32,000 nt of DNA from Candidatus Saccharimonadota bacterium (GCF_003351905.1 NZ_CP022339.1:1071594-1103593); one strand, 5' to 3'; counted from the first letter of the stretch, positions 1,349-32,000 are shown. Program-made: numbers and translations. The notes: generated by a model from the letters alone, not told the origin.

Positions 1349-1371
1349 ATCAGATAAAAACATAATCTTCC

Positions 1372-4922: not shown

Positions 4923-5005
4923 TGACTAGACAATACATTAATCCTTACTTCGTAAGGTCTGTGTGGGCAAGCTAATGGGAAAGAATACTATAAACACAAT
5001 ACAAT

Positions 5006-6455: not shown

Positions 6456-6460
6456 TTCCT

Positions 6461-8247: not shown

Positions 8248-8619
8248 ATGAAGATGAGAGAAAAATACAAACTAGAAGCAATCAAAGAATTTGCAGAAAA
8301 TCCTTTCATAAACTACAGGTCAGAGGTAGAATTGGATGAGTTTTTCATAGATGAACTGTCAAATAAATCTAAGAATATCATCAAGTATTTAATGTTCAAA
8401 CATTCATTTAAAGAAGAAAAATTCTTATTTAAGCTAAATGAGTTTAATAGGTTTATGATATATATCAATATGGAATATCCCTGTGATGGTATAGTAGAAC
8501 TATGCGCTAAAAAGGTATTAGCTAAAACCAAAGATCCAGATCTATATTGGGTGAATAATGATTTCTTTAGAACTGGAATCTTTCAACCAAAATACATAGA
8601 AGATGATGGTTGTAAGTAA
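8248..8619 (+). CDS. Hypothetical protein, last gene of the tra operon
   Basis: 123-aa ORF whose ATG directly follows the upstream TAA. I recognise no motif. Confidence 0.4.
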   Translation: MKMREKYKLEAIKEFAENPFINYRSEVELDEFFIDELSNKSKNIIKYLMFKHSFKEEKFLFKLNEFNRFMIYINMEYPCDGIVELCAKKVLAKTKDPDLYWVNNDFFRTGIFQPKYIEDDGCK

Positions 8620-8625
8620 AGATGC

Positions 8626-9617: not shown

Positions 9618-9850
9618 GTGATCAATACATTACGAAAAATAAATGGCATTAAAAATATAAACTCTCCTAATAGTAATTAGAAAAAATAAAGCACTATGCT
9701 TGATCTAATAAAGATTCTATATATCAGATCCATATAATACAATATTACGTATAATTACTCCTATATGGTAGGCTATTTTTATCTGATTTTATCATGCCCT
9801 ATCTGTAAAATTAAAAATAGAAAACAAAATAAATAACGTTAGGACTCTTG

Positions 9851-9906
9851 TATTACTAATATAGTATATATTTTATATATACAAAAGATATACTATATTA
9901 GTAATA
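9851..9906. repeat. 56-bp AT-rich imperfect palindrome (two internal mismatches)
   Basis: attactaatatagtatat (9852-9869) is the exact reverse complement of atatactatattagtaat (9888-9905). Pairing continues through the spacer except at 9870/9887 and 9875/9882. Confidence 0.9.
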
Positions 9907-9994
9907 TGTAATTGATTCGATGTTAGGTATCTATTGAATGGTTGGATATCTATAAAAGATTATAAGTTTTAATAGTAAGAAAGTAGACTTTACA

Positions 9995-10022
9995 TATATC
10001 TTTTATATATATAAAAGATATA
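9995..10022. promoter_or_regulatory. 28-bp perfect palindrome 15 bp upstream of parA; putative operator or centromere-like site
   Basis: tatatcttttatat/atataaaagatata is self-complementary. Segment 9995-10028 also repeats 9865-9898 as a direct repeat (32/34 identical). Confidence 0.55.
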
Positions 10023-10036
10023 CTATATATTATTGT

Positions 10037-10582
10037 ATGCAAATTTTAGTGGCAAATATAAAAGGTGGGTGTGGAAAAAGCACATTAGTGTCTGCACTAG
10101 CAGATTTATTAGACGCTGATATTATTGATCATGATAACCAAGGCACAATACGCGTAAGCTCGTCCTTTACTGGTTTACGTGTCCCAGTAACCTATGAAAA
10201 AATAACAAAGAAAATCGTTCTTCACGATACACCACCTTATAATACAGGTAACTTGAAGAGCTTAATACAAGAGGCAGATTTAATACTGATTCCATGTAAA
10301 CTTATGTACCCAGATTTACTTGCATTAAGAGCGCTTTCGGATAAACTAAAGAAACTTAACATGACACAAAAAGGTGTAATTGTTTTTAATGAAATTCGTA
10401 AACCACATAATAATACTTATAAAGAAGTTAAAGCGCTTTATGAATCTAATTATTCAGAAATAAAAAAAGCGAAAACAGAGCTTTCTAATTTAATTAGCTT
10501 TAGTAGAGTACTATCTGAACCGATTACTGGTAAGGCATTAGAACAGATTAAATCATTAATTAGTGAATTAAATATATACTAA
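10037..10582 (+). CDS. parA: ParA/Soj-family partition ATPase (small, type Ib-like)
   Basis: Deviant Walker A at the N-terminus (ANIKGGCGKSTLV). At 181 aa it is typical of small plasmid ParA/ParF proteins. Confidence 0.8.
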   Translation: MQILVANIKGGCGKSTLVSALADLLDADIIDHDNQGTIRVSSSFTGLRVPVTYEKITKKIVLHDTPPYNTGNLKSLIQEADLILIPCKLMYPDLLALRALSDKLKKLNMTQKGVIVFNEIRKPHNNTYKEVKALYESNYSEIKKAKTELSNLISFSRVLSEPITGKALEQIKSLISELNIY

Positions 10583-10637
10583 AGATATATTTAATTAAAA
10601 TACCATTGCATTAGATATAATCTATCTATTTTTATAT

Positions 10638-10889
10638 ATGAGCTCAAATAACCCATTTCAAAATATAAATCAAAAACAGGCTTCTATTTCATTGCAAGAG
10701 CATTGTGAACAAGCTATAGTACGGAAAAAAATAGGAAGACCACTTAGACCTAACATGGGCAAATATCTTATAAAAATGGATAAAGGATTACATGCTAAAT
10801 TATCTAAATATGCAGAAGAATTAGGGATTAATAATTCATTTATCATTTCTAAAGCATTAAAAGAATTTTTCTCAAAACATTGTATTTAG
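10638..10889 (+). CDS. Ribbon-helix-helix (CopG/ParG-like) DNA-binding protein, likely ParA partner
   Basis: The C-terminal KYLIKMDKGLHAKLSKYAEELGINNSFIISKALKEFF fits a beta-strand/helix/helix RHH fold preceded by an unstructured tail. It lies directly after parA. Its stop codon overlaps the first G of an orphan Tn3-type IR. Confidence 0.55.
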   Translation: MSSNNPFQNINQKQASISLQEHCEQAIVRKKIGRPLRPNMGKYLIKMDKGLHAKLSKYAEELGINNSFIISKALKEFFSKHCI

Positions 10890-10926
10890 GGGAATTCTAC
10901 GAAAACGGAAAATAAAGCACGCTAAG
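10889..10926 (+). repeat. Orphan 38-bp Tn3-family terminal inverted repeat (Tn21-subgroup-like)
   Basis: ggggaattctacgaaaacggaaaataaagcacgctaag has the GGGG...ACGCTAAG architecture. Its inner 26 nt match my memory of the Tn21/Tn501 IR. I found no reverse-complement partner in the window. Confidence 0.65.
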
Positions 10927-10975
10927 AGTATAGTTTCCCGAAAAAATTGGGCAAAAAAAACAATAACTTCTCTAG

Positions 10976-11213
10976 TTCGCTTTCAATATAAAAAAACGTC
11001 TTAAAGCTTTAGAAGCTAAAATGGCTCAAGATGGGCTTGTGCTGACTGAATCGCAGCTAGCAGCCCTAGAAAAACGTAGAAACGAACAAGAAGCCTATGG
11101 AGAAATAGATACAGAACACCCTGGTTACTTAGGTTGTCAAGATACCTATTATGTGGGTAACTTTAAAGGTATAGGTAAAGTGTATACTCAAGTGTTTATA
11201 GACAGTTATTCTA
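10976..11213 (+). pseudogene. IS481-family transposase, middle fragment (N-terminal HTH region missing, 3' part displaced by the Tn3 insertion)
   Basis: The translation ...GEIDTEHPGYLGCQDTYYVGNFKGIGKVYTQVFIDSYSR is the start of an rve/DDE core typical of IS481. The frame is open from 10976. The remainder of the tracked ORF (to 11287) reads into the Tn3 IR. Confidence 0.8.
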
Positions 11214-11251
11214 GGGGTCGCCTTGGATATGGGAAATTATTGTACGTTAAG
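11214..11251 (+). repeat. Tn3-family IR (tnpA-proximal)
   Basis: ggggtcgccttggatatgggaaattattgtacgttaag. The tnpA stop codon (11237-11239) lies inside it, as in other Tn3-family members. Confidence 0.95.
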
Positions 11252-14230
11252 ACTGTTTTTGTAGTTTTGTATGTTAGCCGGTCGTAGAGGTCGGAACTTA
11301 CCTGATTTTAGTTTTCGCTTTCTTGTCCAGATATAATCTCCTGTCAAATTGATATGCTCCCATCCTAATGGAGATAGATGTGATAACAATTGATCATTGA
11401 TTTTTATTCCCTGTTTTTTTAGAGAGTCTACAGCTCTTTCGATGTAGACCGTATTCCATAGTGTGATGGCAGCTGTGAGCAGTGTTAGTCCACTGGCACG
11501 GTAGCTCTGATTTTCCAGACTTCTGTCCCTGATTTCACCCAACCTGTGCATAAAGACCGCACGGGCAAGGGCATTACGGGATTCTCCTTTATTCAGCCCT
11601 TTTTGTACACGTCGGCGCAATGCTGGATCTCGAAACCAGTTCAGCATGAATAATGTTCTTTCTATTCTCCCGATTTCTCTGAGAGCTTTTGCCAGACCGT
11701 TCTGTTTTGGATAACTGGCCAACTTCTTGAGCATTAGGGATGCAGTAACTGTCCCCTGGCTGATCGAGGTAGCTAGACGAAGCACATCATCCCAGTTTGA
11801 TTCGATATCTTTCAGATTCAGGCTGTTTGCAGATATAATATACTGAAGTCCAGTGTATTGTTGAGCTTTGCCTTGAATGAAAAGTCGTTTGTCATGTAGA
11901 TCTCGAATTCTTGGGCAGAATTCAAAACCAAGTAGGTGCATAATGGCAAATACATGATCGGTGAAACCAGATGTATCGGTATAGTGTTCCCGGATTTCTA
12001 GATCACTTTCGTGATACAGCAAGCCATCGAGTATATGAGTTGAATCCCTTACCCGGCTGATAACCCTGGTATAAAAAGGACTATATTGATCTGAGATATG
12101 GGTGTAAAACTGAACCCCCGGATCCTGACCATATTTAGGGTTTACCTGTCCAGCATAACGTCCTATGCTACCCACTTTAAAATTCTGACCGTCTGAGGAT
12201 GATGTAGTACCCTGACCCCAGTATATAGCCATAGGTTGCTTTCCTTGTGCATTAACTAGTTCAGCAAGAGCAGCTGAATACGTTTCATCACGTATATACC
12301 AGGCCTGAATACCTTCCAGTGAAGATTTGGTCACTCCAGGACAGACATCTGCCATTTTACTAAGTCCTAGGTTGATTCCATCTGAAAGTATAGTGGTTAG
12401 AAGAAGTCGAGTATCAGGGCGAATCACTTCATTTTTGAGATGAGAAAAATGTTGAGTAAAATCCGTCCAGTCGTTTACTTCATCAAGTATTTCTGTAATT
12501 TTAGGATGAGACAGCATACTATAAACCAGAACTGCTAGCGGTGAAACCTCTGCAGGAACGCTATTATCCAATGGCGTGACCTTCACTCCTTTGTTAGATA
12601 TTTCCACATCAGGTAAATTACCACTAACGGCCATATCATTTACCTCTTCGAGCCGCGATTTCAATAATTTTAGACGATTACCGATATATTCACTGTAATA
12701 AAAAAGGCCAGGAAGTGGTAACTCATGATTCTGAATCAACTTATCAAACTCATTTTTAGGAATGAGGTAATCGTCAAAATTTTTATATCGGCGAGAACCT
12801 TTTACCCAGATATCCCCTGAACGAAGCGCGCCTTTCAGTTCGTTAAGAGCGCAAAATTCATAGTACTGTCTATTTATTCCGGTGGGTGCAATAATCACTT
12901 TCCTCCAGCTTTCAGGAATAAAATCCAACGGTGCCATTGGTGGAACCTTTCGTAACTGTTTATGATACATTTCTCTGATGACTGTCAGAGCATCAGCTAG
13001 TGGCTGTGCAGCCGGAGCGGCATTCAGTTCCAATACAGACAACATTCTTGGAGCGTATTTACGTAACGTACTATATTTCTCAATAACAATATGCAGTGGA
13101 TCAAAATTACTTTTTTTGGTCAAAAAACGGGTTTCTTCTAGACTGGTAATAAATTCTTGCCATGGGATAACATGTTCAATAGCAGTCCATGGATCTTCTC
13201 CGGATTCACGGGCTTCAGTTAATGCCTGACCAACAGCAATATACTGGTACAGTTTAGACTGGATAAGTTTACCTGTCTGCTGGAGTCGCTCTGCCTGAGT
13301 CCTTTTAGCCCGGCTGAACATACTGTTCAAGATACGCTCATGCAGATCGATGATCTCATCTGTAAGTGTAGCTCTGGCTTCTTCAATCACACATATCAGA
13401 ATAGCGTATCGTCTGCTTGATGAGAACTTAGTCAAATCTCGGCTGCTCATATTCCGACCCTCACGGGCCAGTTTCAGTAACCGATTCTGATGAACTAAAC
13501 GTCCGATCCCTACCGGTAAGTCCATTGCAACGATCGTATTCAGGCGTTCAATGTGCTGTAATACATTTTTTCCGTTAATGTTACCAGGAGGTTGAAGCAT
13601 CCAAGCTAGACGTGAAAGATGATTATTTGATGCAATCAGAAGGTTGTCTAGAATAACTTTATGCTCTGGAATAAGCCGAGCATTCAGTTCCGAGAATACT
13701 ATTTTATCACCAGCAGCCATGGCCTTTGAGCACGTTCGCTCCAGTACATCAATAGTGGGAATAATCACGCAATTCCGCTGTATATACTTTAGAAGTTCTT
13801 GTGCCAGCAGAATACCCTTGTCAGTGCGTGTTGCAAGTGGAATTAAATATGCAATGCAATCATTTTGAATTTGTTGTGTAAATTTTTTTAGTCCTAGATA
13901 GCGGTATATCTCTACTAAATGTTCCCTGCGAGTGGTGCCTCTTCCTAATGCGTAATCTTTCCAAAGTTCATTTGATAAACTAAGTCTGCTAGCGATATGC
14001 TTGAGTAAAAAATCGGAAAGTAGTGATTTTTTATCTGGGATAATCCCTATGTTCTTCAGATAACAAAGCAAGACAGAAAAACCGAACCTATTGGCTGGCT
14101 TGCGGTGCGTATTAATAAGCGCTAAATCCTGTTCGCTGAAATAAGTCATGCGGATCAACGTAAGTTCATCCTCAGGTAAAGCTAGTAATGATGCTCTTTC
14201 TGATTGAGAAAGAATTTGTCTCCTAGGCAT
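11237..14230 (-). CDS. tnpA: Tn3-family transposase TnpA, apparently intact
   Basis: 997 aa. The N-terminus (MPRRQILSQSERASLLALPEDE...NRFGFSVLLCYL) and overall length are typical of Tn3-family TnpA. Confidence 0.95.
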   Translation of the reverse strand: MPRRQILSQSERASLLALPEDELTLIRMTYFSEQDLALINTHRKPANRFGFSVLLCYLKNIGIIPDKKSLLSDFLLKHIASRLSLSNELWKDYALGRGTTRREHLVEIYRYLGLKKFTQQIQNDCIAYLIPLATRTDKGILLAQELLKYIQRNCVIIPTIDVLERTCSKAMAAGDKIVFSELNARLIPEHKVILDNLLIASNNHLSRLAWMLQPPGNINGKNVLQHIERLNTIVAMDLPVGIGRLVHQNRLLKLAREGRNMSSRDLTKFSSSRRYAILICVIEEARATLTDEIIDLHERILNSMFSRAKRTQAERLQQTGKLIQSKLYQYIAVGQALTEARESGEDPWTAIEHVIPWQEFITSLEETRFLTKKSNFDPLHIVIEKYSTLRKYAPRMLSVLELNAAPAAQPLADALTVIREMYHKQLRKVPPMAPLDFIPESWRKVIIAPTGINRQYYEFCALNELKGALRSGDIWVKGSRRYKNFDDYLIPKNEFDKLIQNHELPLPGLFYYSEYIGNRLKLLKSRLEEVNDMAVSGNLPDVEISNKGVKVTPLDNSVPAEVSPLAVLVYSMLSHPKITEILDEVNDWTDFTQHFSHLKNEVIRPDTRLLLTTILSDGINLGLSKMADVCPGVTKSSLEGIQAWYIRDETYSAALAELVNAQGKQPMAIYWGQGTTSSSDGQNFKVGSIGRYAGQVNPKYGQDPGVQFYTHISDQYSPFYTRVISRVRDSTHILDGLLYHESDLEIREHYTDTSGFTDHVFAIMHLLGFEFCPRIRDLHDKRLFIQGKAQQYTGLQYIISANSLNLKDIESNWDDVLRLATSISQGTVTASLMLKKLASYPKQNGLAKALREIGRIERTLFMLNWFRDPALRRRVQKGLNKGESRNALARAVFMHRLGEIRDRSLENQSYRASGLTLLTAAITLWNTVYIERAVDSLKKQGIKINDQLLSHLSPLGWEHINLTGDYIWTRKRKLKSGKFRPLRPANIQNYKNSLNVQ

Positions 14231-14397
14231 ATAGTTTGCATTAATAATTATTTTGTAGATTAATTTTCATTCAAATATTTGTCTCATAAGGGTATACCTC
14301 AATGAAATAGCAAAGATGTTATCCTATTCCATTAATGAAATAACTTATATGCGATAGATTCAATGACATAACCTAAATACGATAAATTCATGAGAAT
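14231..14397. promoter_or_regulatory. Putative res site and divergent promoter region between tnpA and tnpR
   Basis: The position is canonical for res. The motif T(C/T)AATGA(A/C)ATA recurs at 14299-14309, 14332-14342 and 14360-14370. An inverted partial copy sits near 14265. Confidence 0.4.
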
Positions 14398-15478
14398 ATG
14401 TTCATCAGAGCTTATTTGAGAGCTTCAACAGAAGATCAGTTTGTAGATCGAGCACAAGAAATGCTCGAGCAGTTTGTTCAGGAGAGAGGACACAAAATCG
14501 CTAGCTATTACCGAGAAAATATCAGTGGAACAAAATTGGATAGACCAGAATTAGGAAGATTACTCATGGATAGTCACCGGAATGATATCTTACTGGTCGA
14601 ACAAATAGATCGGCTGACCCGTCTGAGCAATAGTGATTGGGTAATACTAAAAAAAAAGATTGAACACCATGAACTGAAAATTGTGAGTCTGGATATACCA
14701 ACTTCATGGCAGGCTTTGTCTGACAAAGAAACATCACAAAACGATCCACTCACCTTTCGCACCAAAATCATGCTTTGATTTTAGTTAAAATATCTTATAT
14801 TAGTTGGTTAAAGGTTTGTATGGTTCATAGCTCATTAAGCTAGCTTTTTAAAGTTGAACAAAGGAAAAATGATAGCATCATAATTACTAAAAAAAACGTT
14901 TATGAATGACTATCAATATTATATTTTTTATTTGTTCATTTAAATAATAGCTTATTAAGCACTTTATAAAGACCAAATCCACTATTCCATAATGGATGGC
15001 TGAAATGGTATCGACTAACTTAATGGGAAGTTCATTCCTATTACAAACTAAATCTAGAGATAGAGTTTATAGAAAAAATTCAAATCTATCTCATGATATA
15101 AATGCTTGCTGAAAACAATATTTAGAAATGTGCTGATAATCAGTAATAAATAATTATTAAAGTCTATATTTCTGGTGCGGAATGTGAGATCCAGTAACAC
15201 GTACTGTGATTTCCGCCATCAATAATATGCTCATGGATCTAATGGCCGCAATGTCGTATAAGGATTGGCTGAGCCGTCAGCAACGACAGAAACAAGGAAT
15301 TGAAAGAGCACATGAACAAGGTAAATATCGGGGAAAGCAGCCTGATCATGAGAGACACCAGAAAGTAGTCTACTATCGAAATGTGAAAAAACTAAGTATC
15401 TATGAAACCGCACAAGCTACCGGGTACAGCGCTTCGCAGGTATGCCGTATTCAACGATTGTACACTTTAAACAATTAA
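14398..15478 (+). pseudogene. tnpR: Serine recombinase (resolvase TnpR) split by a 438-bp insertion
   Basis: The N-terminal catalytic part (MFIRAYLRASTEDQ...LLVEQIDRLTR) ends at 14778 after reading into the insert. The C-terminal part (ISAINNMLMDLMAAM...HTH) resumes at 15188 in the same codon phase. Removing 14749-15193 gives a 211-aa ORF. Confidence 0.85.
14750..15187. mobile_element. MITE-like non-autonomous element inserted in tnpR
   Basis: Terminal inverted repeats tcacctttcgcaccaaaa (14750-14767) and the reverse complement of 15170-15187, tcacattccgcaccagaa, match at 15/18. Flanking direct repeat gatcca(c/g) at 14743-14749 and 15188-15194. The interior is AT-rich with no tracked ORF. 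Confidence 0.7.
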
Positions 15479-15611
15479 AAAAGTAATGCTAAGCACTTTT
15501 AGTAGATTGCTAGAAAATGGGGAAATTAATATCGAAAAAGTGTTGCTAAGCAGGTATATTTATACAATAACCTGGAAGAAAAGGAAGAACATCTTTAGTA
15601 CAGAAAACAGC

Positions 15612-15649
15612 CTTAACGTACAATAATTCCCTATATCCAAGGCGACCCC
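15612..15649 (-). repeat. Tn3-family IR (tnpR-proximal)
   Basis: Its reverse complement is ggggtcgccttggatatagggaattattgtacgttaag, a 36/38 match to the left IR. Confidence 0.95.
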
Positions 15650-15654
15650 TTCTA

Positions 15655-16172
15655 GAGTAGCTCATGCAAAACTTTACACTGATAAAACAACCCTAACAGC
15701 TGCCGACCTGTTAAATGATAGAATACTGCCTTTTTATCAAGATCAAAACATACCTATTTTACGTATACTAACAGATCGTGGTACTGAGTATAAGGGTAAA
15801 ATAGAACATCATGCTTTTGAGTTGTTTTTAAGTATAGAAGGTATAGAAATAGAACATACCGTCACTAAAGCCTATTCACCACAAACCAATGGATTTTGTG
15901 AGCGTTTTAATAAAACAATGAAACAGGAATTCTTTGATACAGCTATGCGTAAAAAAATCTATACGGATCTCCATGACTTGCAACAGGACTTAGATAGTTG
16001 GTTAGATTACTACAATCAGGAGCGACCACATTCTGGAAAGTATTGTTATGGTAAAACACCTAGGAAAACTTGGGAGGATAGTAAAAAATTAGTCTTTGAA
16101 AAAAATAATCAAATCGCTTATCTTAACAACCTAACTGACACGTTTAACTTAACGGACAACTTTAATACTTAA
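15655..16172 (+). pseudogene. IS481-family transposase, C-terminal fragment
   Basis: The open frame from 15655 reads (R)VAHAKLYTDKTTLTAADLLNDRILPF...LTDRGTEYKG...SPQTNGFCERFNKTMKQEF...YNQERPHSG. It joins in frame to the 10976-11213 fragment once the Tn3 element and one TTCTA copy are removed. Confidence 0.85.
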
Positions 16173-18429: not shown

Positions 18430-19776
18430 GGAAGTGTTCGATGAACTGTGTCAATTCCTAAAAGAGTTATAAATTAAATAATTAACGACTAAAGGTTTTT
18501 AGACATGGAAGAGCATATGAACAATGATTACGTTGGTTTAGTAGATTATAAAGATTTGGAGGAAAACATTTTGTCCTCTATCCGTTTAGGTAAGCCATTG
18601 ACAGGCAAAGGTGGGGCATTAACCCCTCTGATAAAAAGCTTCTAGAGGCGAGTCTAGAAGGTGAGATGGCCCATCATTTGTCTAGTGAGAGGATAGTAAA
18701 TAATCGAAGGAATGGTAAAAGTTGTAAAACTTTTCGTACAAGCTCTGGTTCCTTTGACTTGGTAACCCCTAGAGATAGAACAGGTAGTTTCGATCCACAA
18801 ATAGTTAAAAAGCGTCAAACAAATCTTCATCCTGAACTGGAAACCAAGATTTTAAGCATGTTTTCTAGTGGTATGAGCTATAAGTCTATAGCCGCTCATA
18901 TTGAAGAAATCTATGATCATAAAGTATCAGCTGCTGAAATATCGGCTATTACAGATAGCTTATTGCCAGTAATAAATGAATGGCGTAACCGTCCTCTTCA
19001 ATCGGTCTACCCCATAGTTTTTATGGATGGTATGTTTTTTAAGGTTAAAGAAGATGGGAAATGTGTAAGTAAATGTCTGTATACCTTATTAGGCATAGAT
19101 CAAGAGGGTAAAAAAGAAGTGTTAGGCTTCTATTTATCTGAAAGTGAGGGAGCTAATTTCTGGTTAGGTGTACTCAACGAGCTTAAGGCAAGGGGTGTAG
19201 AAGATATCCTTATTGCCTGTGTTGATGGACTAAAAAGCTTCCCTGCAGCCATTAATAACGCTTTTCCCAATGCACAGGTGCAGGTCTGTGTAGTACACCA
19301 GATACGCAATTCCATCAAGTATGTAGCTAGCAAAGATGTAAAACGTTTTTTAACTGATTTAAAGCAAGTATATCAAGCTTCAAATAAGGAAGTTGCAGAA
19401 CATTATCTATTGGAATTAGAAGAAAAATGGGGAGAAAAGTATCCAATGGTTATCAAATCTTGGCAAAACAACTGGGAGCATTTGTCTGGTTACTTTAAAT
19501 ATTCAGATCCTGTCAGAAGGCTAATTTATACGACCAATCCAATAGAAAGCCTCCATAGACAAATTAGACAGTTTACCAAAACAAAAGGGGCATTTACCAG
19601 TGTCAATGCTTTGTATAAATCAGTATATTGCGCTATCAAGAAGATGGAGGATAAATGGACTATGCCGCTCAGAAACTGGGCACTGACCATATCTCAGATA
19701 GACATCTTTTTTCCTGGAAGAGTCAAATCTGAGTTGACGTGAAGCCCGAAACTGACACAGTTAATTGAACACTTCC
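18430..19776 (+). mobile_element. IS256-family insertion sequence, copy B (1347 bp)
   Basis: The ends are ggaagtgttcgatgaactgtgtcaattcc (18430-) and ...gaaactgacacagttaattgaacacttcc (-19776), with IRs matching at 25/29. There is no flanking direct repeat (gcataaat versus tcttaaaa). Confidence 0.9.
18505..19742 (+). pseudogene. IS256-family transposase with a -1 frameshift in an A-run
   Basis: The ATG 18505 frame reads MEEHMNND...TPLIKSF then TAG at 18643-18645. The rest continues in another frame (tracked ORF 18666..19742). Copy B has A5 (18633-18637) where copy C has the equivalent of A6 (T6 at 22098-22103). Confidence 0.9.
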
Positions 19777-22306: not shown

Positions 22307-22518
22307 TCCACATCTCAATCAAAATAAACCTTAACAACGAAATATTTTTATCACAAAAAATTTGCTTATTAACATAGTGCGTGTAAATATTATTTAGGTT
22401 GTATATTTCCTTAGATTTTAACGCTTAAACACAAAGACCCATTTATTAGGATAAATTTTTATAAATTTTGTTTCCTACTTTTTCCCATTTGCTAGCCCCC
22501 ATTTTTTAAATACCTAAG

Positions 22519-23266
22519 CTAGACATTCATAGGTTTTTGATAATTAATGCTAGAATGAAATCTTTGATAATTATACTTGGTAATGTAACTGTTAATTCCC
22601 GCTTTTAGCGCTTTAATATTTTTAAAATCATTTATAATGATGCAATTATATTTTAGCGTTCTAAAAAATCTTTCCATCACAATATTATCAATACTTCTAC
22701 CCCTGCCATTCATGGAGATTTTAATATTATGATTTTTTAATGGCTTTACTATGCCAGTTATAATAGCTGAATTGATTGTATATATATCGATAACCATATT
22801 CGGGGTGTTCCCTATAAACTGAATCTGTTTTTTTAAAAAATCTGAATTACAATTATATTTGTAATATATTAAAGAGCGATTTATCGATAATAACACACAT
22901 TGTCTTGCCTTGGGTAAGTTGGGAAGCTTGGATCTGACAAGACTTTTCTTACTTAATAAATCCAAGCTCTTTAGCTTTCCCACTACCCAATCTCGCTCAA
23001 CTGTAGCCTTGCCTAAGGCTTTAGCAAAGTTCATCATTTTGATGCTTAAGAGTCTGTATTTCATCCTTATAAACGCTAACAACTTTGGATGGATCAAAGG
23101 CTACTGAAGCATTTTCTAAAAACTGACGTTTCCAATTTTGAATAGTTTTACTAGTGACACCATACTTGGACGATAACTAAACTAGCGTTAAATCTTCTTT
23201 TAGTAAAGCTAATATTATTTTAGTCTTTTCTTCCGAACTAAAATTTCTAATCTTATTTCTGACCAT
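22519..23266 (-). pseudogene. Degenerate IS3-family transposase (orfA plus remnant of orfB)
   Basis: From ATG 23266 it reads MVRNKIRNFSSEEKTKIILALLKEDLTLV(TAG)LSSKYGVTSKTIQNWKRQF.... A frame change near 23040 leads to AKALGKATVERDWVVGKLK, and the end reads ISMNGRGRSIDNIVMERFFRTLKY...YNYQRFHSSINYQKP. Most of the DDE core is missing. Confidence 0.7.
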
Positions 23267-23423
23267 TTGATAACTGTATTTTACACATGATTAAACTAAA
23301 ATATACAGAAACAAATTATCATTTTTTTTGTCCGATTTTTTCAGTCCATTATACTTTATGTTCATTCAAGCCCGATGGTCCAACTAACTTTTGGATAGAC
23401 TTTTACCTATTTTTTTTAGATTT

Positions 23424-24707
23424 TTATTTGGTATTGCAACGGCCTGGGTATATGGATTTAAGGATATTTCTAATTTTATCATAAGCCTCCTCGAGTTCGG
23501 AGGTGTTTGTTGAATAAGGTGGTAATAGATAAACAGAATTACCAAGAGGTCTGATTAAAAGTCCCTGTTCTAAGCATTTTCTTTTTAAGGTTTGTGCCTC
23601 ATGAACATCAAACGCTGCTATTGTACCAGTGACACGTCTTTGTCTTGCTGGTAAATCTGCTAAGCCTTTTCTATGTGCATTATTGATTGCCTGAATGGAT
23701 TCCATAGTACTTTGTTTAAGTAATAAGTCTAAGGAAGCAAGTGCTGCTGCACAACCTAAAGGATTGGCAGTATAAGAATGACCATGAGCAAAAGCTTTGT
23801 TGAATTTCTCGTCCAAAAACGCTGAATAAACTTTCTCAGTAGTAACTGTTAAAGCAAGCGGTAAAAAGCCTCCTGTTAATCCTTTAGCAAGACATAAAAA
23901 ATCGGGTATAATTTTAACTTGTTCAAAAGAGAAGTAAGTACCAGTACGTCCAAAACCAGTCATTACCTCATCAAAAATTACCAAAATTTCATACCTACGT
24001 ACTAAACTAACCACTTTTTTAACAAACTCTGGACGACACATTTTCATCCCGTTTGCTCCCTGTATTAAACGTTCTACAATTAATGCAGCAATTTTATCAG
24101 CACTATTATTTAAGTGGTGCTCTAGTGCTGTAAGTGCATAAGTTTCCTTATTCTGTATTTCTTCATCTCGATCCCAAGTTTCAGGAAAAGGAATTGTCAA
24201 AACCGAGAAAAATAAATCTGAGAATATATCATGAAAACCAGATTTTAAACCTATACTCATTGCACCAAATGTATCGCCATGATATCCACCATTAAAACTT
24301 AAAAATATAGTTCTTTTAAGATCACCCTGGTTGCGCCAGTACTGGTAAGCCATTTTTAGTGCTACTTCAACGGCAGTAGAACCATTATCTGAAAAAAAGA
24401 ACTTAGAGAGCCCTGGTAATAAAGAATGTAATTTTTCACAAAGTTTGACAGCAGGCTCATGGGTAAATCCAGCAAAAATCACATGTTCTAGACTGATACT
24501 TTGGTTATATATAGCTTTAGCAATATCAGGATGCGCATGACCATGTAGATTTACCCACCAACTAGAGATGAGATCTAGATATGGCTTGTTTTGCTCATCA
24601 TAAATATATGATCCATATGCTCTTTTAATTGCAATTCGATGTTCAGCTATCTTTTCTTGTGTAAATGGATGCCATATAATTTTTTTATCACGCTCATTTA
24701 GATTCAT
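23424..24707 (-). CDS. bioA: Adenosylmethionine-8-amino-7-oxononanoate aminotransferase
   Basis: 427 aa. The class-III aminotransferase pattern (IWHPFTQ...SSWWVNLHGH...GGYHGDTFGAMS...DEVMTGFGRTG) is typical of BioA. It has a 4-nt overlap with bioD. Confidence 0.93.
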   Translation of the reverse strand: MNLNERDKKIIWHPFTQEKIAEHRIAIKRAYGSYIYDEQNKPYLDLISSWWVNLHGHAHPDIAKAIYNQSISLEHVIFAGFTHEPAVKLCEKLHSLLPGLSKFFFSDNGSTAVEVALKMAYQYWRNQGDLKRTIFLSFNGGYHGDTFGAMSIGLKSGFHDIFSDLFFSVLTIPFPETWDRDEEIQNKETYALTALEHHLNNSADKIAALIVERLIQGANGMKMCRPEFVKKVVSLVRRYEILVIFDEVMTGFGRTGTYFSFEQVKIIPDFLCLAKGLTGGFLPLALTVTTEKVYSAFLDEKFNKAFAHGHSYTANPLGCAAALASLDLLLKQSTMESIQAINNAHRKGLADLPARQRRVTGTIAAFDVHEAQTLKRKCLEQGLLIRPLGNSVYLLPPYSTNTSELEEAYDKIRNILKSIYPGRCNTK

Positions 24708-25318
24708 ATAATATTAAAAATTGTTTGTAATTCAACTAAAAATGGAACTTTTATTAAGTTCTCTTTGCTTATATGCTGCAGTGTAGGAATTGATGCTAAT
24801 ACCTTCACTTTACCATAAAATTCTATTGCTTTAAGATTATCCTTATTATATTGCCCATTTAAAATTATCCCTAGTATGCTGATATTTCTTGCACGTAATG
24901 CTTCTAAACTTAGTAATGTATGATTAATTGTACCGATCGTAGACCGAGCAACTAAGATTACTGGTGTAGCACACTTCTTAATTAGATCGACCATAAATAT
25001 AGTCTCATTAATTGGAACAAGAATTCCTCCAGCCCCTTCTATAATTAAGTTGCTTACTTTAGGTAAAGTTATCTCTTCGATATCAATCTTCCTGCATTCA
25101 ATTGATGCTGCCAAATGAGGGGATGATTCTTTTTCAAAAAGAAAATCTTCTTTATAAACATTAGTACCTGTTAACTTATTCACTTCATGACTATCTGTAC
25201 CTAAAGTACTTCCGGTTTGAATAGGTTTGAAATAATGGTAACCAGTATGTAAGCAAAGCCAGCTACTTATAATAGTCTTACCAACATCTGTATCTGTTCC
25301 TGTTACAAATATTTTCAT
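24704..25318 (-). CDS. bioD: Dethiobiotin synthetase
   Basis: 204 aa with the N-terminal P-loop FVTGTDTDVGKT and EGAGG motif. Confidence 0.9.
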   Translation of the reverse strand: MKIFVTGTDTDVGKTIISSWLCLHTGYHYFKPIQTGSTLGTDSHEVNKLTGTNVYKEDFLFEKESSPHLAASIECRKIDIEEITLPKVSNLIIEGAGGILVPINETIFMVDLIKKCATPVILVARSTIGTINHTLLSLEALRARNISILGIILNGQYNKDNLKAIEFYGKVKVLASIPTLQHISKENLIKVPFLVELQTIFNII

Positions 25319-26058
25319 TTGCTTAAAATTCCAAAAAATACTTTGTAGGTGATGTTAATTTTATCTGTATAAGTTTTAATAATCTTCTTTAAATCACTTA
25401 CCAGAATTTGCTGGTTGCTATAGTTTGCTCCTAAATTATTTAGGTATTTTATAAAGCTACTTGAGTTTGAAAATGCTAGATGAAATTCCTGTGAATTGAA
25501 AAAGCACTTACTTGGGGTTAAGGAAAGTAAATAATCCTCTAATGCTTGTCTAGATGGGTACTGATGGGTTGGTGTAGGTAGTGAGGACTCTATAAAAATT
25601 TTAGACCATTCACTAAATGTACCATCCAGTAGAGACGAAAAAGCAAAAATACGTGAGTGTTCATAAAACTTTTTTATTACTTTATTATGGTCGTTTACCC
25701 ATTGAAGTGCTAGATTCGAGATAACAAGATCATGAAAATCAAAATTCTGTATTTCCATATCACCTAAAATAAATTCGACTTTTTTATTTTCCAGTTTCTT
25801 TTTTGCTTGAGCAAGCATATTGGGTGATAGGTCATTTATAGTGAATTGGCTTTCAGGAAAATAACAAGACAATATTTTTGGAATATATCCAGTACCTGTA
25901 CCCAGGTCTAAAATAGAATCTGGATAGAACGTAGCAGCGTACTTTTTTAAATAATTAACCAGCTCTATGGCACATTTTTTTTGAATTGAAGCAACAGAAT
26001 CATAGGATGAGCTTGCTCTGTCAAAATTACTCTTTATGTGTGCTTTCTGAAATACCAT
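25315..26058 (-). CDS. bioC: Malonyl-ACP O-methyltransferase
   Basis: 247 aa with the SAM-binding motif ILDLGTGTGY. It sits between bioH and bioD. Confidence 0.8.
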   Translation of the reverse strand: MVFQKAHIKSNFDRASSSYDSVASIQKKCAIELVNYLKKYAATFYPDSILDLGTGTGYIPKILSCYFPESQFTINDLSPNMLAQAKKKLENKKVEFILGDMEIQNFDFHDLVISNLALQWVNDHNKVIKKFYEHSRIFAFSSLLDGTFSEWSKIFIESSLPTPTHQYPSRQALEDYLLSLTPSKCFFNSQEFHLAFSNSSSFIKYLNNLGANYSNQQILVSDLKKIIKTYTDKINITYKVFFGILSK

Positions 26059-26674
26059 CTACAAAACTTATAATTTGTTCATGTACAAAATGACGTCCAT
26101 ATAAGCCTAAGGAATGATAACCTTCATTGTGCACTACAACCCTAACGTACTTACTAAAATTGTCAAATACAAGCTCTGTAGGTACAATCGTATCATTTTT
26201 TGAACCTATTATTAATAGTGGTATATCCGGCAAAGGATATGCTGCAGTCAGCAACTCTAAATCTTTCATTAATTTAATTTTATTAAGACAGTTAGAAATG
26301 TCATAATTTATGCCACAACGTTTATGGAAAGATGCTAGCGTATCTATGGGGGTTATCTGAAAGTGCTTTATCATTGTTTTAAGTTCTAATTTTCTTTTTT
26401 TATGTAATTCTGAATCAAATCCTAAAAAATTAATAAAAGCGTGTATCCCAATAAGAGCTGTGAATTTTACCTTTAATGAGATTAATTTTATAAATCCAAG
26501 AGAATGGCCAACACCAATCAGTGTATTGTTACTTGGTAATCTTAAGTTTTCTTTTCCAAAATAACCAAGGTCTAAGCAATAGCAGCAAAGATTTGAAAAA
26601 TATTCTTTTATAAGAGGCTCAAAAAACTTGTGGTCAAATCCCCAACCGTGACAAAATATAAAGCAGGGTTTCAT
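26027..26674 (-). CDS. bioH: Pimeloyl-ACP methyl ester esterase (alpha/beta hydrolase)
   Basis: 215 aa with the HGWG oxyanion motif, the nucleophile elbow GHSLG and a C-terminal H. It sits between bioF and bioC. Confidence 0.75.
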   Translation of the reverse strand: MKPCFIFCHGWGFDHKFFEPLIKEYFSNLCCYCLDLGYFGKENLRLPSNNTLIGVGHSLGFIKLISLKVKFTALIGIHAFINFLGFDSELHKKRKLELKTMIKHFQITPIDTLASFHKRCGINYDISNCLNKIKLMKDLELLTAAYPLPDIPLLIIGSKNDTIVPTELVFDNFSKYVRVVVHNEGYHSLGLYGRHFVHEQIISFVDGISESTHKE

Positions 26675-27807
26675 ATCTTCTTAAGAGCATCTATTAAATG
26701 ATCTAAGTGGATCTCAGTGTGACTTACATTAAGTGCAATCCGTAATCTTGCTGTACCAGGAGGAACAGTAGGTGGACGTATAACAGAAACAATCAATCCG
26801 TGTTTTAAAAGCTTTGCTTTCGCATGGATTGTACTAGTTTCATTACCTAGAATGATTGGTATAATATGTGTAACCGAATTACCTATATTAAATCCAAGTC
26901 TTTGTAGATTATTCCTCAACTTTTCGGCCTTACAAGCTAAAGCTTGACGTTGATCAGTGAGATCTTTTATTAAGTCCCAAGCCTTAGCTGCTGCACCAAT
27001 TATCATTGGCGAAAGAGAAGTTGAGTAGATAAACCCTGAACATTTGTTGATAAGGTAATGCTTTATAATATTAGAGCAACAAACATATGCTCCGAAGCAC
27101 CCCAACGCTTTACTAAAAGTACCTAAAACTAAGTGGGGAATTTCATTAAGATTAATGTTAGTAGATAAGCCGTATCCATCATCACCGATAACACCCGTTG
27201 CATGTGCTTCATCTAAGTATAAAAAAGCATCATGTTCTTTACTGAGCCTAAAGATTTCATCTATTGGTATAACATCTCCATCCATACCAAAAATAGTTTC
27301 AGTAACAATAAACTTTTTCCTTTTTTGATCTTTGAATTTTGTCAATAATTTACTTAAGTGATTCATGTCATTATGATGGTATCGTATAAGCTCAGCATCA
27401 CTTAAAAATATAGCTTGATATAAACTTGCATGATTTAATTTGTCGAAAAAAACCATAGGTTTATGGCCTAATATTGCCTGATCTAATAAACTTGCAAGAA
27501 CTGTTACATTAGATTGAAAACCAGAGTTTAAAATAAGAGCTGACTCAGTTTTTTTGTCTTGAGCAATCTTACTTTCAAGATCTTCAAATATTGGTCTATT
27601 ACCAGATAGTAAACGAGAACCAGTAGATCCTACTCCAAACTGTTTTCCAGCAGATTTTGCTACTTTTAATACCACTTTTGACTTGCTTAATCCAAAATAA
27701 TCATTACTAGAAAAATCAATAAAATTTTTATCCAAATCTGATTGTAACTGTCTATATTTTTCTTTAGCTTTTAATTCATCAAGATGTTTGTAGTATTCTT
27801 TGTACAT
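26671..27807 (-). CDS. bioF: 8-amino-7-oxononanoate synthase
   Basis: 378 aa. This is an alpha-oxoamine synthase pattern with LDEAHATG and the PLP-lysine motif GTFSKALG. Confidence 0.92.
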   Translation of the reverse strand: MYKEYYKHLDELKAKEKYRQLQSDLDKNFIDFSSNDYFGLSKSKVVLKVAKSAGKQFGVGSTGSRLLSGNRPIFEDLESKIAQDKKTESALILNSGFQSNVTVLASLLDQAILGHKPMVFFDKLNHASLYQAIFLSDAELIRYHHNDMNHLSKLLTKFKDQKRKKFIVTETIFGMDGDVIPIDEIFRLSKEHDAFLYLDEAHATGVIGDDGYGLSTNINLNEIPHLVLGTFSKALGCFGAYVCCSNIIKHYLINKCSGFIYSTSLSPMIIGAAAKAWDLIKDLTDQRQALACKAEKLRNNLQRLGFNIGNSVTHIIPIILGNETSTIHAKAKLLKHGLIVSVIRPPTVPPGTARLRIALNVSHTEIHLDHLIDALKKI

Positions 27808-27860
27808 AATTAATTTTTTATTTACCCAACTTACCTATACCTAAGTAAAATTTAAAACTA

Positions 27861-28820
27861 ATGAAAAAAAAATGGATTCTTTCTGAAATAGACAAAATTT
27901 TTAGTCTTCCATTTCCCGAGTTGATTTATACAGCACAAGGAGTACATAGAACACGTTTTAATGGTCATGAAGTACAGATTAGTACACTTTTGAGCATTAA
28001 AACAGGTAGTTGTCCTGAAAATTGCTCTTACTGTCCCCAGTCAGCACACTACGATACTGGATTAAAAAAAGAGCCTTTATCAAAAATTTCAGAAGTAATT
28101 GAAGCAGCCAAACGTGCAAAAGAAGCTGGTAGTACTCGTTTCTGTATGGGTGCAGCTTGGCGTGGACCACGCGATCAAGATTTAAAAATTGTTTGCGAAA
28201 TGGTTAGAGAAGTAAAAAAACTAGGTGTTGAGACATGTGTCACACTTGGGTTATTGAAAGACTACCAAGCTAATATGCTTAAAGAGGCTGGTTTAGATTT
28301 TTACAATCATAATGTTGATACATCTCAAGAGTATTACGATAAAATTATAACAACACGTACTTTTAAAGATCGTTTAGATACATTGGAGCATGTACGTAGT
28401 GCTGGTATCAAGGTTTGTTGTGGTGGTATCCTTGGCATGGGAGAAACTAATCAAGATCGAATAAAAATGTTGATCCTTCTTGCTAACATGGAGGAACCAC
28501 CAGAATCAGTACCAATTAATATGCTGATGAAAATTCCTGGCACTCCTCTTGAACATGTAGCTGATGTCGATCCGTTTGATTTTGTCCGTACTATTGCAAT
28601 AGCTAGAATCATAATGCCCACATCTTATATTCGTTTATCAGCTGGGAGAGAAAAAATGTCAGATGAGCTGCAAGCTCTATGTTTCCTTGCTGGAGCTAAT
28701 TCAATTTTTTATGGTGAAAAGCTACTAACCGCTCAAAATCCGGTACCTGAACAAGATGAATTTTTATTACAAAGATTAGGCCTAAAAAAGTTGCATAACG
28801 AGTCATCTATTTCTATCTAA
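27861..28820 (+). CDS. bioB: Biotin synthase (radical SAM)
   Basis: 319 aa with the [11 protein letters not shown] cluster motif and YNHNVDTS. It is divergent from bioF across a 53-bp spacer. Confidence 0.95.
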
Positions 28821-28913
28821 TTTTGTAAGCAATAACAGTTAAATCTTGTTTCACGTTTATAAAAAATCATATTTTAAAAACCAAAATGCCTAAGGTATAT
28901 CGTTTCGTGTATT

Positions 28914-30362
28914 ATGGAAAAAAAGGCAGAAGATATCTTACAAAAGATTACTGATTCCGATTATGAGTATGGCTTTGAAAGTAATATTTCTGTAGATACC
29001 ATTCCAAAAGGTTTAACAGAGGATACGATTCGTTTGATCTCATATAAAAAAGAAGAACCTGATTGGCTTCTAACCCGTCGTTTACAAGCCTTTCGTCATT
29101 TATCTAAACTCAAAGAACCGACCTGGGCAAAAGTTAGCTATCCACCTATAGACTATCAGAATATCATTTATTATGCTGCTCCTAAGCAAAAAGTACAACT
29201 GAGTTCTTTAGAAGAAGCTGATCCTGAATTACTAGCTACATTCAAGAGGCTCGGTATCTCTCTAGAAGAACAAAAAAGGTTAACTGGTGTAGCTATGGAT
29301 GTTGTATTGGATAGTGTTTCCGTGGCCACTACTTTTAAAGATACGTTAAATAAACTAGGAATTATTTTTTGTTCCTTTAGTGAAGCGGTTCAAAAGCACT
29401 CTGATTTAGTTCAAAAGTATTTAGGTAAGGTAGTACCCATGACCGATAATTATTTTGCTACCCTGAATATGTCTGTATTTAGTGATGGTTCCTTTTGCTA
29501 TATTCCCAAAGGTGTCCATTGTCCTATGGAGCTTTCCACTTATTTTCGCATCAATGCCACCAATACGGGGCAATTTGAACGGACTTTAATTGTAGCAGAA
29601 GAAGATGCTTATGTTAGCTATTTAGAAGGGTGTACCGCCCCTATGCGGGATGAACACCAATTACATGCTGCTGTAGTAGAGATTTATGCTGAAAAAGGGG
29701 CGCATGTAAAATATGCTACTGTGCAAAATTGGTATCCAGGTAATAAGGATGGGGTAGGTGGGGTCTATAATTTTGTAACCAAAAGAGGCCTTTGTGCGGG
29801 CGCGCATGCTAAAATTTCTTGGACACAAGTAGAAACAGGATCAGCTATTACTTGGAAGTATCCCAGTTGTATTTTAATGGGAGACCATTCGGTAGGTGAA
29901 TTTTATTCTGTAGCGGTTACTAAGAATAAACAGCAAGCAGATACGGGAACGAAAATGATTCACTTAGGTAAACATACCAAGAGCCGAATTGTAGCCAAGG
30001 GTATTGCAGCTGGCTAATCCAATAATAGTTATAGGGATTTGGTTAAGCTCACATCTGGAGCTGCGCATGCTACTAACTTTTCTCAGTGTGACTCTTTATT
30101 GATGGGCAATAATTGTGGTGCTCATACTTTTCCTTATATAGAAGTAAAAAACCCAACCGGGCAGGTGGCCCATGAAGCCACTACTTCTAAAATTAGTGAA
30201 GACCAATTGTTTTATTGCAATCAACATGGTATTGATCATGAAAACGCAATTGCACTTATTGTCAATGGTTACTGCAAGGAAGTACTTAATCAGTTGCCTA
30301 TGGAGTTTGCTGTAGAAGCCCAAAAACTATTGTCGCTTACTTTAGAAGGCAGTGTTGGGTAG
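28914..30362 (+). pseudogene. sufB: Fe-S cluster assembly scaffold SufB with one in-frame TAA
   Basis: ORFs 28914..30017 and 30039..30362 are in the same frame. The reading GIAAG(TAA)[11 protein letters not shown]...[20 protein letters not shown]...[16 protein letters not shown]...[10 protein letters not shown] is colinear with SufB through to the normal C-terminus. Confidence 0.9.
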
Positions 30363-30645
30363 GGGTTATGTAACTAGTACTACCGAAAAATTTTATGAAA
30401 TTTTCTATCAGAGAATAAAAAATTATATTGTTTTCCATAAGATAATGTGATAAGACAATGTGATATTGCCTTAATAGGCTAGGTCAAGGACCCTAAAAAA
30501 GGATATTATTTAGACCTTTATAAGCAGTACATACTGTAGCAATCTCTGATATTTTGTTTCCGTTCACGACTATGGTAATAAAAGTTGTTAAATGAGCAAT
30601 AATTTGCTAGGTTTAGTTATTATTTATCAATACTTATACATCTCC

Positions 30646-32000
30646 ATGGAAGGTCTTGGATCTCTAGTTAACAGCTTACAATCAGAAATTCGCCAACTAA
30701 AGGCAGAGATTGATGTATTGACTGATTTATTTACTTTAAAGATCGACCTACTAACGGCAGAAAATAGATCCTTAAAGGAAGCAACTACCTCCTTAACAGC
30801 AACCAATAAAGCTTTAACTGAAGAAATTTCTAAGCTAAAATACAAGCTAGGTTTGACCTCTAAGAACTCCTCGATTCCTACCTCCAAAGAGCTATACAAA
30901 ATAAAACGGAATAAAGTAAAAAGTACTCGTAAACGAGGCGGTCAACCTGGTCACTCAGGTGCTGCTCGTGGTAAGATGGTAGCAGATGAGGTTATCGAGT
31001 TGTCTATTTCAGGTTCATGTTCCTGTGGTGGTCATGTAGCGATATCTTCCAAGCCTTATATTCATCAAAAAGTAGATTTACCCGATATTAAGCCGCATGT
31101 AATCAGTTATCATATGGAGCATGGTCGCTGTAGAAAATGCGGGAAACGCTACACTGCTAGACTTCCTAAGGGTGTTACCTCAGATGCCTTTGGTCCTAAA
31201 ATCAAATCAGTGATAGGCGCTTTGACTGGCTTTTATAAAAACTCTAAACGAGAGGTAGCTTGTATATTACAAGATATCTTTAATCTAGATATCAGTCTGG
31301 GTAGTATCTCTAATAGCGAGGCTAGGGTAGCATTCAAAATGCAAAACAGCTTACCAAGCTATAGAAGAAACCATTAAGCAAAGTAAAGTACTGCATATAG
31401 ACGAAACGGGGCACAATAATAATGGTAAACTAAATTGGGGTTGGATGTTTACTAACGTTATGGCCAGCCTCCTTAAGCTCACTACTTCCAGAAGCCGAAA
31501 AGTTTTAGAAAGTAGTGGACTGAATCCTAAAGATCACATTGTGATCAGTGATAGATACGCAGTTTACAATTACTTTCCACCCACCCATAGGCAACTTTGT
31601 TGGTCACATATAGCTAGAGATTTTGAGAGGTTTTCCCATAGTTTCCATAGAGGTGTTAAAGTATAAGGCTATTCCTTAAAACAGATAGCCAGTGAATTAT
31701 TTGCTTTACATCGATCCTTTTTGAATCATTCTATTGAGTTACTTCCTTTTTTAAGGCGCATTAGAAAATTGCGCAAACAGACCTGGTATGGCTTAAAAGC
31801 TATTGCTAGGGTAGCAGGTGCTGTGCACGCTAATCGTGTAGCCAGAAATATAATGCGAGCAGAGCCTATGTTATGGAAATTTTATCAGGACCCGGTAAAC
31901 ATTCCTTTGACTAATAACTTGGCTGAGAGGCAAATCAGACACTACGTGGTTTATCGTAAAAACTCATACTTTACTCAATCAGAACGGGGTAATAGATTCT
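30646..32000 (+). pseudogene. IS66-family transposase, decayed (frameshift plus in-frame stop), continues off-window
   Basis: It has an N-terminal leucine zipper, RGGQPGHSG, and a zinc-finger-like CSCGG...CRKCG. The frame shifts near 31335-31350 to ...AIEETIKQSKVLHIDETGHNNNGKLNWGW. An in-frame TAA lies at 31664-31666, then ...LTNNLAERQIRHYVVYRKNSYF. Confidence 0.85.

Follow-up and report, generated by a model that had tools for sequence, protein, structure and literature searches.

The window analyzed here, a 32,000-nucleotide stretch of DNA (NZ_CP022339.1:1071594-1103593), contains the BOOM-type biotin operon of Cardinium cSfur, a symbiont of Sogatella furcifera, which is in print as CE557_856-861. 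We consider it very likely that a single exchange with Wolbachia-like Rickettsiales brought this operon into the ancestor of the group-A Cardinium, that it was afterwards inherited vertically under purifying selection, and that it now sits at a lineage-specific site made by rearrangement driven by insertion sequences (IS). The nearby IS256 copies, the Tn3 transposon, and the IS256-bracketed, plasmid-derived tra/par fragment would have arrived later and would not have been the carrier of the operon. A sequence-only reading of the same DNA had proposed a laterally transferred operon of the symbiont type and a physical context that could explain its movement between lineages. The gene order, together with the clade formed with Wolbachia, other Cardinium strains, the Rickettsia buchneri plasmid pREIS2, and Lawsonia, bears out the first proposal. 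The second is not supported, since the operon has no shared flanks and no bracketing repeats, its mobile neighbors are younger, the adjacent sufB is native, and its branching resembles that of native genes.

Much of this locus has been described. Zeng et al. (2018) reported a complete bioA-D-C-H-F-B pathway in cSfur (CE557_856-861) in conserved order, inferred horizontal transfer from Alphaproteobacteria, perhaps Wolbachia, and described tra blocks in the chromosome (CE557_832-839) with homology to plasmid pCher (PMC6147030). That 2018 paper thus already covers the operon and its lateral origin, as well as the plasmid-like tra blocks. Driscoll et al. (2020) named the operon type BOOM and listed Cardinium, citing Zeng 2018 (PMC7750005). 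A 2025 review restates the account of the biotin operon (PMC12342168), as does a 2026 comparative paper, in which a single acquisition was inferred for group-A Cardinium (PMC12842512). Added here are the IS and Tn3 anatomy of the flanks, a ~24-bp cSfur-specific insertion in the bioF/bioB spacer, and the recognition of a native sufB as the right neighbor.

Gene content and relationships of the operon

Genes were called from an open reading frame (ORF) map and from curated NCBIfam and Pfam profiles. All six BOOM genes are present:

23424-24707, minus strand: bioA, adenosylmethionine-8-amino-7-oxononanoate transaminase (TIGR00508, 531 bits against a cut-off of 405, full length; identical to AXI24638.1)
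24704-25318, minus strand: bioD, dethiobiotin synthase (TIGR00347, 122 bits against a cut-off of 83; PF13500 over the full length)
25315-26058, minus strand: bioC, malonyl-acyl carrier protein (ACP) O-methyltransferase (TIGR02072, 180 bits against a cut-off of 185, profile positions 1-244 of 244)
26027-26674, minus strand: BOOM-type 'bioH', alpha/beta-hydrolase serine esterase of 215 amino acids (identified by BOOM homologs, catalytic triad, and predicted structure)
26671-27807, minus strand: bioF, 8-amino-7-oxononanoate synthase (TIGR00858, 412 bits against a cut-off of 426, profile positions 14-365 of 365)
27808-27860, no strand: divergent bioF/bioB spacer of 53 bp (aligned with six other BOOM loci)
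27861-28820, plus strand: bioB, biotin synthase (TIGR00433, 412 bits against a cut-off of 225; identical to AXI24643.1)

Adjacent genes overlap by 4 nt at A/D, D/C, and H/F and by 32 nt at C/H. This map reproduces exactly the six intact genes, with the same coordinates, overlaps, and 53-bp spacer, that the sequence-only reading had described. BioB retains the radical S-adenosylmethionine (radical-SAM) motif CxxxCxxC, as CPENCSYC at residue 51. The profiles span the full length of each of these five proteins, and BioC and BioF fall marginally below their equivalog cut-offs; for bioC, which scores just under the curated threshold, the assignment is backed by the operon context.

The BioB, BioA, and VirB4-like ATPase sequences are exact matches to AXI24643.1, AXI24638.1, and AXI24618.1, all from one cSfur assembly, and the 'bioH' product is 100% identical to a Cardinium cSfur protein. 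The replicon that carries the operon is the 1,103,593-bp (1.10-Mb) chromosome-scale cSfur assembly and not a plasmid, with the caveat that this assembly is a short-read scaffold. As for BOOM in general, the host is an obligate intracellular bacterium, the Cardinium endosymbiont of S. furcifera, whose biology is described in PMC6147030.

Neither Pfam nor NCBIfam gave a significant match to the 'bioH' ORF (alpha/beta-hydrolase Pfam models scored below threshold), and this ORF reached only 16.3 bits against the canonical BioH model TIGR01738, for which the cut-off is 206.95. Its 84 homologs come mostly from Wolbachia (60-69% identity), other Cardinium (66-73%), R. buchneri (47%), and Lawsonia (44%), along with unnamed metagenomic proteins. 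The product belongs to an esterase family that is found between bioC and bioF in all BOOM operons. A GHSxG motif with S58, together with D161 and H187, is invariant across 31 sequences. In the AlphaFold2 model (mean predicted local distance difference test score, 94.7), the protein is predicted to have an alpha/beta-hydrolase fold with a Ser-Asp-His triad. Foldseek returned alpha/beta hydrolases, among them Klebsiella BioH (6k5e; template modeling score, 0.71, at 15% identity), which was not uniquely best. Sequence and model together suggest that 'bioH' encodes a presumed pimeloyl-ACP methyl ester esterase, BioH-like and outside the canonical BioH family. The identities BioG, BioJ, BioK, and BioV were also considered for this esterase, and none is backed by a curated family match.

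Gene order was compared across 88 fetched loci. These include a Cardinium locus from SRR3100146 (L081), cEper1-like C. hertigii loci (L082/L083), Wolbachia of Oedothorax gibbosus (L085), Wolbachia CP156069 (L086), R. buchneri plasmid pREIS2 (L087), and a Telmatospirillum metagenome-assembled genome (L017). The arrangement bioA-D-C-H-F, with bioB divergent beside bioF, is found only in L001, L002, L017, and L081 to L088, and about 75 proteobacterial loci show a bioB-F-(C)-D layout with no match to the BOOM esterase. The Telmatospirillum locus (6647-10924) lies in an alphaproteobacterial genome of free-living type; it has the full BOOM order and a BioH-type match (30%), and it branches just outside the BOOM clade. 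This locus may resemble the ancestral donor arrangement.

In a neighbor-joining (NJ) analysis of 1,680 concatenated columns, the BOOM clade (a 9-taxon bipartition), the grouping of Cardinium with Wolbachia, and the monophyly of Cardinium each received 100% bootstrap support. A phylogeny of the concatenated Bio proteins against the symbiont operons had been suggested with the sequence-only reading, and it places cSfur inside the BOOM clade. By maximum likelihood (ML), Cardinium is sister to Wolbachia, and trees that place Wolbachia within Cardinium lose 50-64 log-likelihood units. ML favors (cSfur,(L081,L082)), with a resampling estimated log likelihood (RELL) value of 0.977, and the native LipA and SufB agree in making cSfur the outlier. 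The NJ pairing of cSfur with L081 (93-97%) was rejected as a rate artifact caused by the faster L082 branch, because gamma-rate ML with RELL, LipA, and SufB all disagree with it. Since the ML order matches that of native genes, the phylogeny points to descent within group-A Cardinium rather than to fresh delivery.

The ratios of nonsynonymous to synonymous divergence (dN/dS) of the bio genes were 0.17-0.30 against L081, 0.15-0.36 against L082, and 0.10-0.18 against Wolbachia. Values of 0.10-0.36 for all six genes indicate purifying selection. The operons of relatives have decayed: bioB is fragmented in L081 (7882-8838), and L083 (10001-11023) has a bioH-bioA fusion with bioC and bioD deleted. 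Against this background, the full intactness of the cSfur operon is meaningful, and the earlier claim that it is both intact and selected is upheld. In L085 (12020-12892), an IS4-type (DDE_Tnp_1) transposase lies between bioD and bioA, and bioA as called at this locus encodes only 356 amino acids, a shortened product.

Flanking DNA and its assembly

Nucleotide homology to every other BOOM locus stops at 23456-23468 and at 28789-28802, so that it leaves out roughly the last 20-45 bp, at the 3' end, of bioA and of bioB. When the flanks were searched with tblastx and blastn, no flank shared with any other BOOM locus was found. The suggested comparison of flank synteny therefore yielded nothing in common with other BOOM loci beyond the six genes, and the conserved unit, as delimited by homology, is exactly those six genes. 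Within the window, no repeats, shared IS, or target duplications bracket the operon. The neighboring features are as follows:

28914-30362, plus strand: native Cardinium sufB with one in-frame TAA (codon 368, 30015-30017), identified by translation
30592-31666, plus strand: IS66-family remnants (DUF6444 and zf-IS66 domains and a DDE_Tnp_IS66 fragment)
22501-23354 (approximate), minus strand: internally deleted IS3-family remnant, ~70 bp from the bioA stop codon
20959-22306, minus strand: IS256-family copy C, with an intact transposase ORF of 412 amino acids (NF033543, 391 bits), 1.1 kb from bioA
18430-19776, plus strand: IS256-family copy B, with a 1-bp indel relative to copy C and an ORF shortened to 358 amino acids (repeat families I1 and I3)
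15822-16172: second, small IS3-family integrase fragment, between IS256 copies A and B
11214-15649, minus strand: Tn3-family transposon of 4.4 kb with tnpA and resolvase (NF033527, 1,104 bits) and 47-bp terminal inverted repeats (I4)
946-10979, plus strand: plasmid-derived Bacteroidetes-type tra block (VirB4/TraG-like ATPase and TraM), Rpn nuclease, and parA, from family matches
1-945, plus strand: IS256-family copy A, truncated at the edge of the window (transposase match; repeat families D1 and I2)

On the bioB side, sufB begins 93 bp past bioB. SufB is 92% identical to SufB of the Oedothorax Cardinium, and the next matches are from Cytophagales (76-79%). The sequence-only reading had described a broken suf operon at this position; what is present is a solitary native sufB with a single TAA, and in two further strains of Cardinium (L091 and L092), too, sufB stands alone and is not followed by sufCDS. 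Homology with the loci of these two strains is restricted to the coding sequence. The dN/dS of sufB, measured against another Cardinium, is 0.05-0.08 on each side of the stop codon, and the TAA would stem either from an error in sequencing or from an inactivation in the very recent past. BioB and LipA require Fe-S clusters, so a real loss of sufB would be surprising. The IS66 remnant reported earlier on this side is confirmed by the domains at 30592-31666.

The bioA side likewise contains the elements named in the earlier reading. Its possible IS3 terminus is the internally deleted remnant, which matches only positions 295-367 of a 369-position IS3 transposase profile and is 77.6% identical, in two pieces, to a 1,265-bp stretch of pCher. 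The intact IS256 is copy C, and tra genes, parA, and Tn3 were all found within 25 kb of the operon. Copy C is inverted relative to copies A and B and is reported as 100% complementary to them. Copies A and B are direct repeats that bracket the 17.5-kb tra/par/Tn3 block; the operon lies outside this bracket and is separated from copy C by the IS3 remnant.

Over 10 kb, the tra block is collinear with p_B (CP101108.1), a plasmid of the Dermatophagoides farinae Cardinium, at 87.8-88% identity, and the homology begins exactly at the IS256 end. Upstream in p_B are coupling-protein and relaxase genes, which the tra block lacks. Directly upstream of parA, at 9851-10028, there are direct repeats and inverted repeats, all AT rich: units of 34 nt lie 130 bp apart, and a perfect-spaced palindrome measures 28 nt. 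These repeats resemble iterons or a partition site that came with the plasmid-derived block. The Tn3 element has a perfect 5-bp TTCTA target duplication and a full-length tnpA ORF, and the GC content of tnpA (41%) is well above that of its surroundings. This element is 92% identical to plasmid p_A (CP101109.1) of the D. farinae Cardinium and ~76% identical to plasmids of Fukatsuia symbiotica, matches which indicate that it circulates among unrelated arthropod symbionts.

In L081, lipA lies directly beside bioB (6806-8838), and in cSfur, LipA (AXI24606) is encoded ~32 proteins before BioA (AXI24638), on the bioA side. This placement hints that lipA and the bio genes were linked ancestrally and that the IS256, plasmid, and Tn3 DNA may later have separated them and inverted the arrangement. 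Target duplications or swapped flanks that would mark an IS256-mediated inversion or integration were looked for, and none were found.

The arrangement of the IS256 copies fits IS-mediated cointegration or rearrangement and fits equally well short-read scaffolding through repeats. The cSfur genome was assembled from Illumina reads with SOAPdenovo2 (k=67), SSPACE, and GapFiller, and contigs were picked by BLAST to a reference Cardinium. Because all links between the bio genes and the tra/par/Tn3 DNA pass through identical 1.35-kb repeats in this short-read assembly, the linkage across the 25-kb neighborhood is uncertain, and the perfect identity of the IS copies may be a product of gap filling. 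The neighborhood could thus be partly an assembly artifact, in which the tra/par/Tn3 segment, or even the bio segment, lies elsewhere or on a plasmid and was joined through identical IS256 copies. In keeping with this are the Illumina-based scaffolding, the position of three near-identical IS256 copies exactly at segment boundaries, the 88% identity of the tra block to a bona fide Cardinium plasmid, and the GC content of the whole window (34.7%), which is under the genome mean of 39.2%. Inspection of the flanks of all three IS256 copies also revealed no matching target duplication. We nevertheless regard an artifact as very unlikely. Mate-pair libraries are able to span a 1.35-kb repeat, and the tra block, with its missing coupling-protein and relaxase genes, resembles a fragment rather than a replicon. 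Moreover, a second, diverged chromosomal copy of the tra block was reported by the genome's authors (PMC6147030), and the junction between the bio genes and the native sufB is unique sequence.

It is quite unlikely, on the same assembly, that BOOM is coupled to the plasmid-derived conjugative segment, whether as an IS256 cointegrate or as an unrecognized plasmid merged during scaffolding. Were this so, the coupling would provide the first candidate for a vehicle that moves BOOM from one Cardinium strain to another and between this genus and Wolbachia, and the lower synonymous divergence (dS) of the operon (0.49, against 0.80 for sufB) would reflect transfer after the strains diverged.

Probable descent of the operon and the question of delivery by mobile DNA

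A further possibility is that the operon was recently delivered to cSfur as the cargo of the mobile DNA beside it, whether an IS256 composite or an integrated conjugative plasmid or integrative and conjugative element. The proximity of IS256 copy C to bioA and of the tra/par/Tn3 block to the operon would be expected under this explanation. Similar neighbors occur in other carriers: fragments of Tn3 and of IS256-family elements, together with a resolvase, flank the pREIS2 operon, and in L086 an IS256-family element lies within 2.5 kb of bioB. The explanation would also accommodate the different operon context in each Cardinium strain and an operon dS below the sufB dS between the same strains. 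We consider it very unlikely, on several grounds.

Considered as a composite transposon, the locus has IS256 and an IS3 remnant on the bioA side only, and the other side has the native sufB followed by the IS66 remnant. There is no second IS256, inverted repeat, or target duplication around the operon within the window, and the operon stands outside the bracket formed by copies A and B. The only target duplication, TTCTA, belongs to the Tn3 element, 8 kb from the operon. The mobile elements of other carriers differ from those of cSfur: relative to the cSfur copy, the IS256-family element near BOOM is 67% identical (amino acids) in L086, ~41% (38-44%) in pREIS2, and 39% in L082. Identities of only 39-67% indicate different elements in different carriers. 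The cSfur Tn3 tnpA and resolvase have no match near the pREIS2 operon. Homology between carriers ends inside bioA and bioB, as described above, and the Cardinium operons form a single clade whose branching follows that of native genes.

Plasmid sequences led to the same assessment. A search of 72,556 PLSDB plasmids with the operon and flank DNA gave only sufB, bioB, and IS matches and no close plasmid relative; the best plasmid bioB match was 64% identical, and no Cardinium plasmid in PLSDB has a close bioB. The ages also differ. The IS copies are near identical, and the target duplication of the Tn3 element is still in place. The operon, by contrast, shows a dS of ~0.5 to its nearest relative and is 16-25% diverged from its nearest relatives; the mobile context is therefore much younger than the operon. 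Taken together, these comparisons do not support the mobile DNA of this window as the vehicle of BOOM transfer.

Several observations weigh against a single exchange followed by vertical descent of a functional operon. BioC and BioF score slightly under their NCBIfam equivalog cut-offs, 'BioH' fails the canonical BioH model, and the production and provisioning of biotin by cSfur are predicted from homology. NJ and ML conflict on the branching within the Cardinium clade, and the ML analysis used a simple model (Poisson+F+G4) with 8 taxa. The operon context differs in every Cardinium strain examined, which rearrangement explains and does not prove. A comparison of base composition, also suggested with the sequence-only reading, showed the operon to be lower in GC (33.4%; 22% at third codon positions) than the published genome mean of 39.2%, a difference of ~6 points; the operon GC content is 31-36% in every host examined. 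Finally, between cSfur and the SRR3100146 strain, dS is 0.49 for the bio genes (23424-27807) and 0.80 for the native sufB (28914-30359; L092). The lower operon dS could be gene specific, could result from base-composition bias, or could reflect later exchange among Cardinium strains. Because there is one calibrator and a strong AT bias at third codon positions, we do not read this gap as evidence of transfer, and exchange after divergence retains a small probability.

The remaining alternative, that the bio genes are vertically inherited Bacteroidota genes, would suit a host that is itself a member of the Bacteroidota and has a native sufB next to the operon, but it has almost no chance of being correct and is already refuted by the phylogeny as reconstructed here: the close relatives are all from Wolbachia, Rickettsiales, Holosporaceae, or Lawsonia, the gene order is specific to BOOM, the pathway is absent from most Cardinium and Amoebophilus (PMC12342168), and no Bacteroidota occur among the best 80 BioB loci (mostly distant Proteobacteria, among which known Cardinium and Wolbachia genomes are also absent). 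The grouping with free-living Bacteroidota that the sequence-only reading had named as contrary evidence was thus not seen.

Predicted pathway and comparison with known systems

The pathway is modeled on the established E. coli-type route. BioC would methylate malonyl-ACP, from which fatty acid synthesis would make pimeloyl-ACP methyl ester, and the BOOM-type 'BioH' esterase would then take off the methyl group. BioF, BioA, BioD, and finally the radical-SAM enzyme BioB would complete the synthesis of biotin. The genes bioFHCDA probably form one translationally coupled transcription unit, with bioB transcribed divergently. The spacer between them (27808-27860) contains the ~24-bp insertion specific to cSfur, which is ACTTAGGTATAGGTAAGTTGGGTAAA-like and has a short AGGTA direct repeat; in six other BOOM loci, the bioB-bioF spacer is 14-34 bp. 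Given so short a spacer, the divergent promoters probably overlap coding sequences. A sigma-70 promoter scan of the operon found 18 sites against 25.7 expected, showing no enrichment, although such a scan is ill suited to Bacteroidota promoters. No operator was identified in the bioF/bioB spacer region.

BOOM is a vitamin pathway that has been transferred across phyla and through which a reproductive parasite can become a nutritional mutualist. S. furcifera is a major rice pest that feeds on biotin-poor phloem. The importance of the locus is already in print in the papers of 2018, 2020, 2025, and 2026, and the addition made here is mostly negative.

Compared with BOOM as defined (PMC7750005) and with the published cSfur copy (PMC6147030), the operon has the same genes, order, orientation, divergent BioH-type esterase, and clade, and nothing essential differs. 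Other group-A Cardinium (L081 and L082/L083) carry sister sequences with 75-82% concatenated protein identity and conserved 4-nt and 32-nt overlaps. They differ in context from strain to strain and in integrity, since bioB is fragmented in L081 and bioC and bioD are absent from L083, whereas the cSfur operon is fully intact. Wolbachia BOOM (L085 and L086) forms the sister clade, with 100% support and ~75% concatenated identity, and also has transposase-rich flanks without synteny (PMC7750005). It differs in that its host belongs to another phylum and in that the nearby IS256-family element is only 67% identical to that of cSfur. The pREIS2 operon (L087) shares the gene order and has Tn3, resolvase, and IS256-family fragments alongside. 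In contrast to the cSfur operon, it is truly plasmid borne, its concatenated identity is 62%, and its flanking elements are little or not related to those of cSfur.

The E. coli-type bio locus has the same enzymatic pathway and, likewise, a pair of divergently transcribed units. In that locus, however, bioA is divergent from bioBFCD, bioH is unlinked, and there is a BirA operator, whereas in cSfur, bioB alone stands opposite bioFHCDA. Unlike the E. coli type, the cSfur operon itself includes the esterase gene, whose product falls outside the canonical BioH family.

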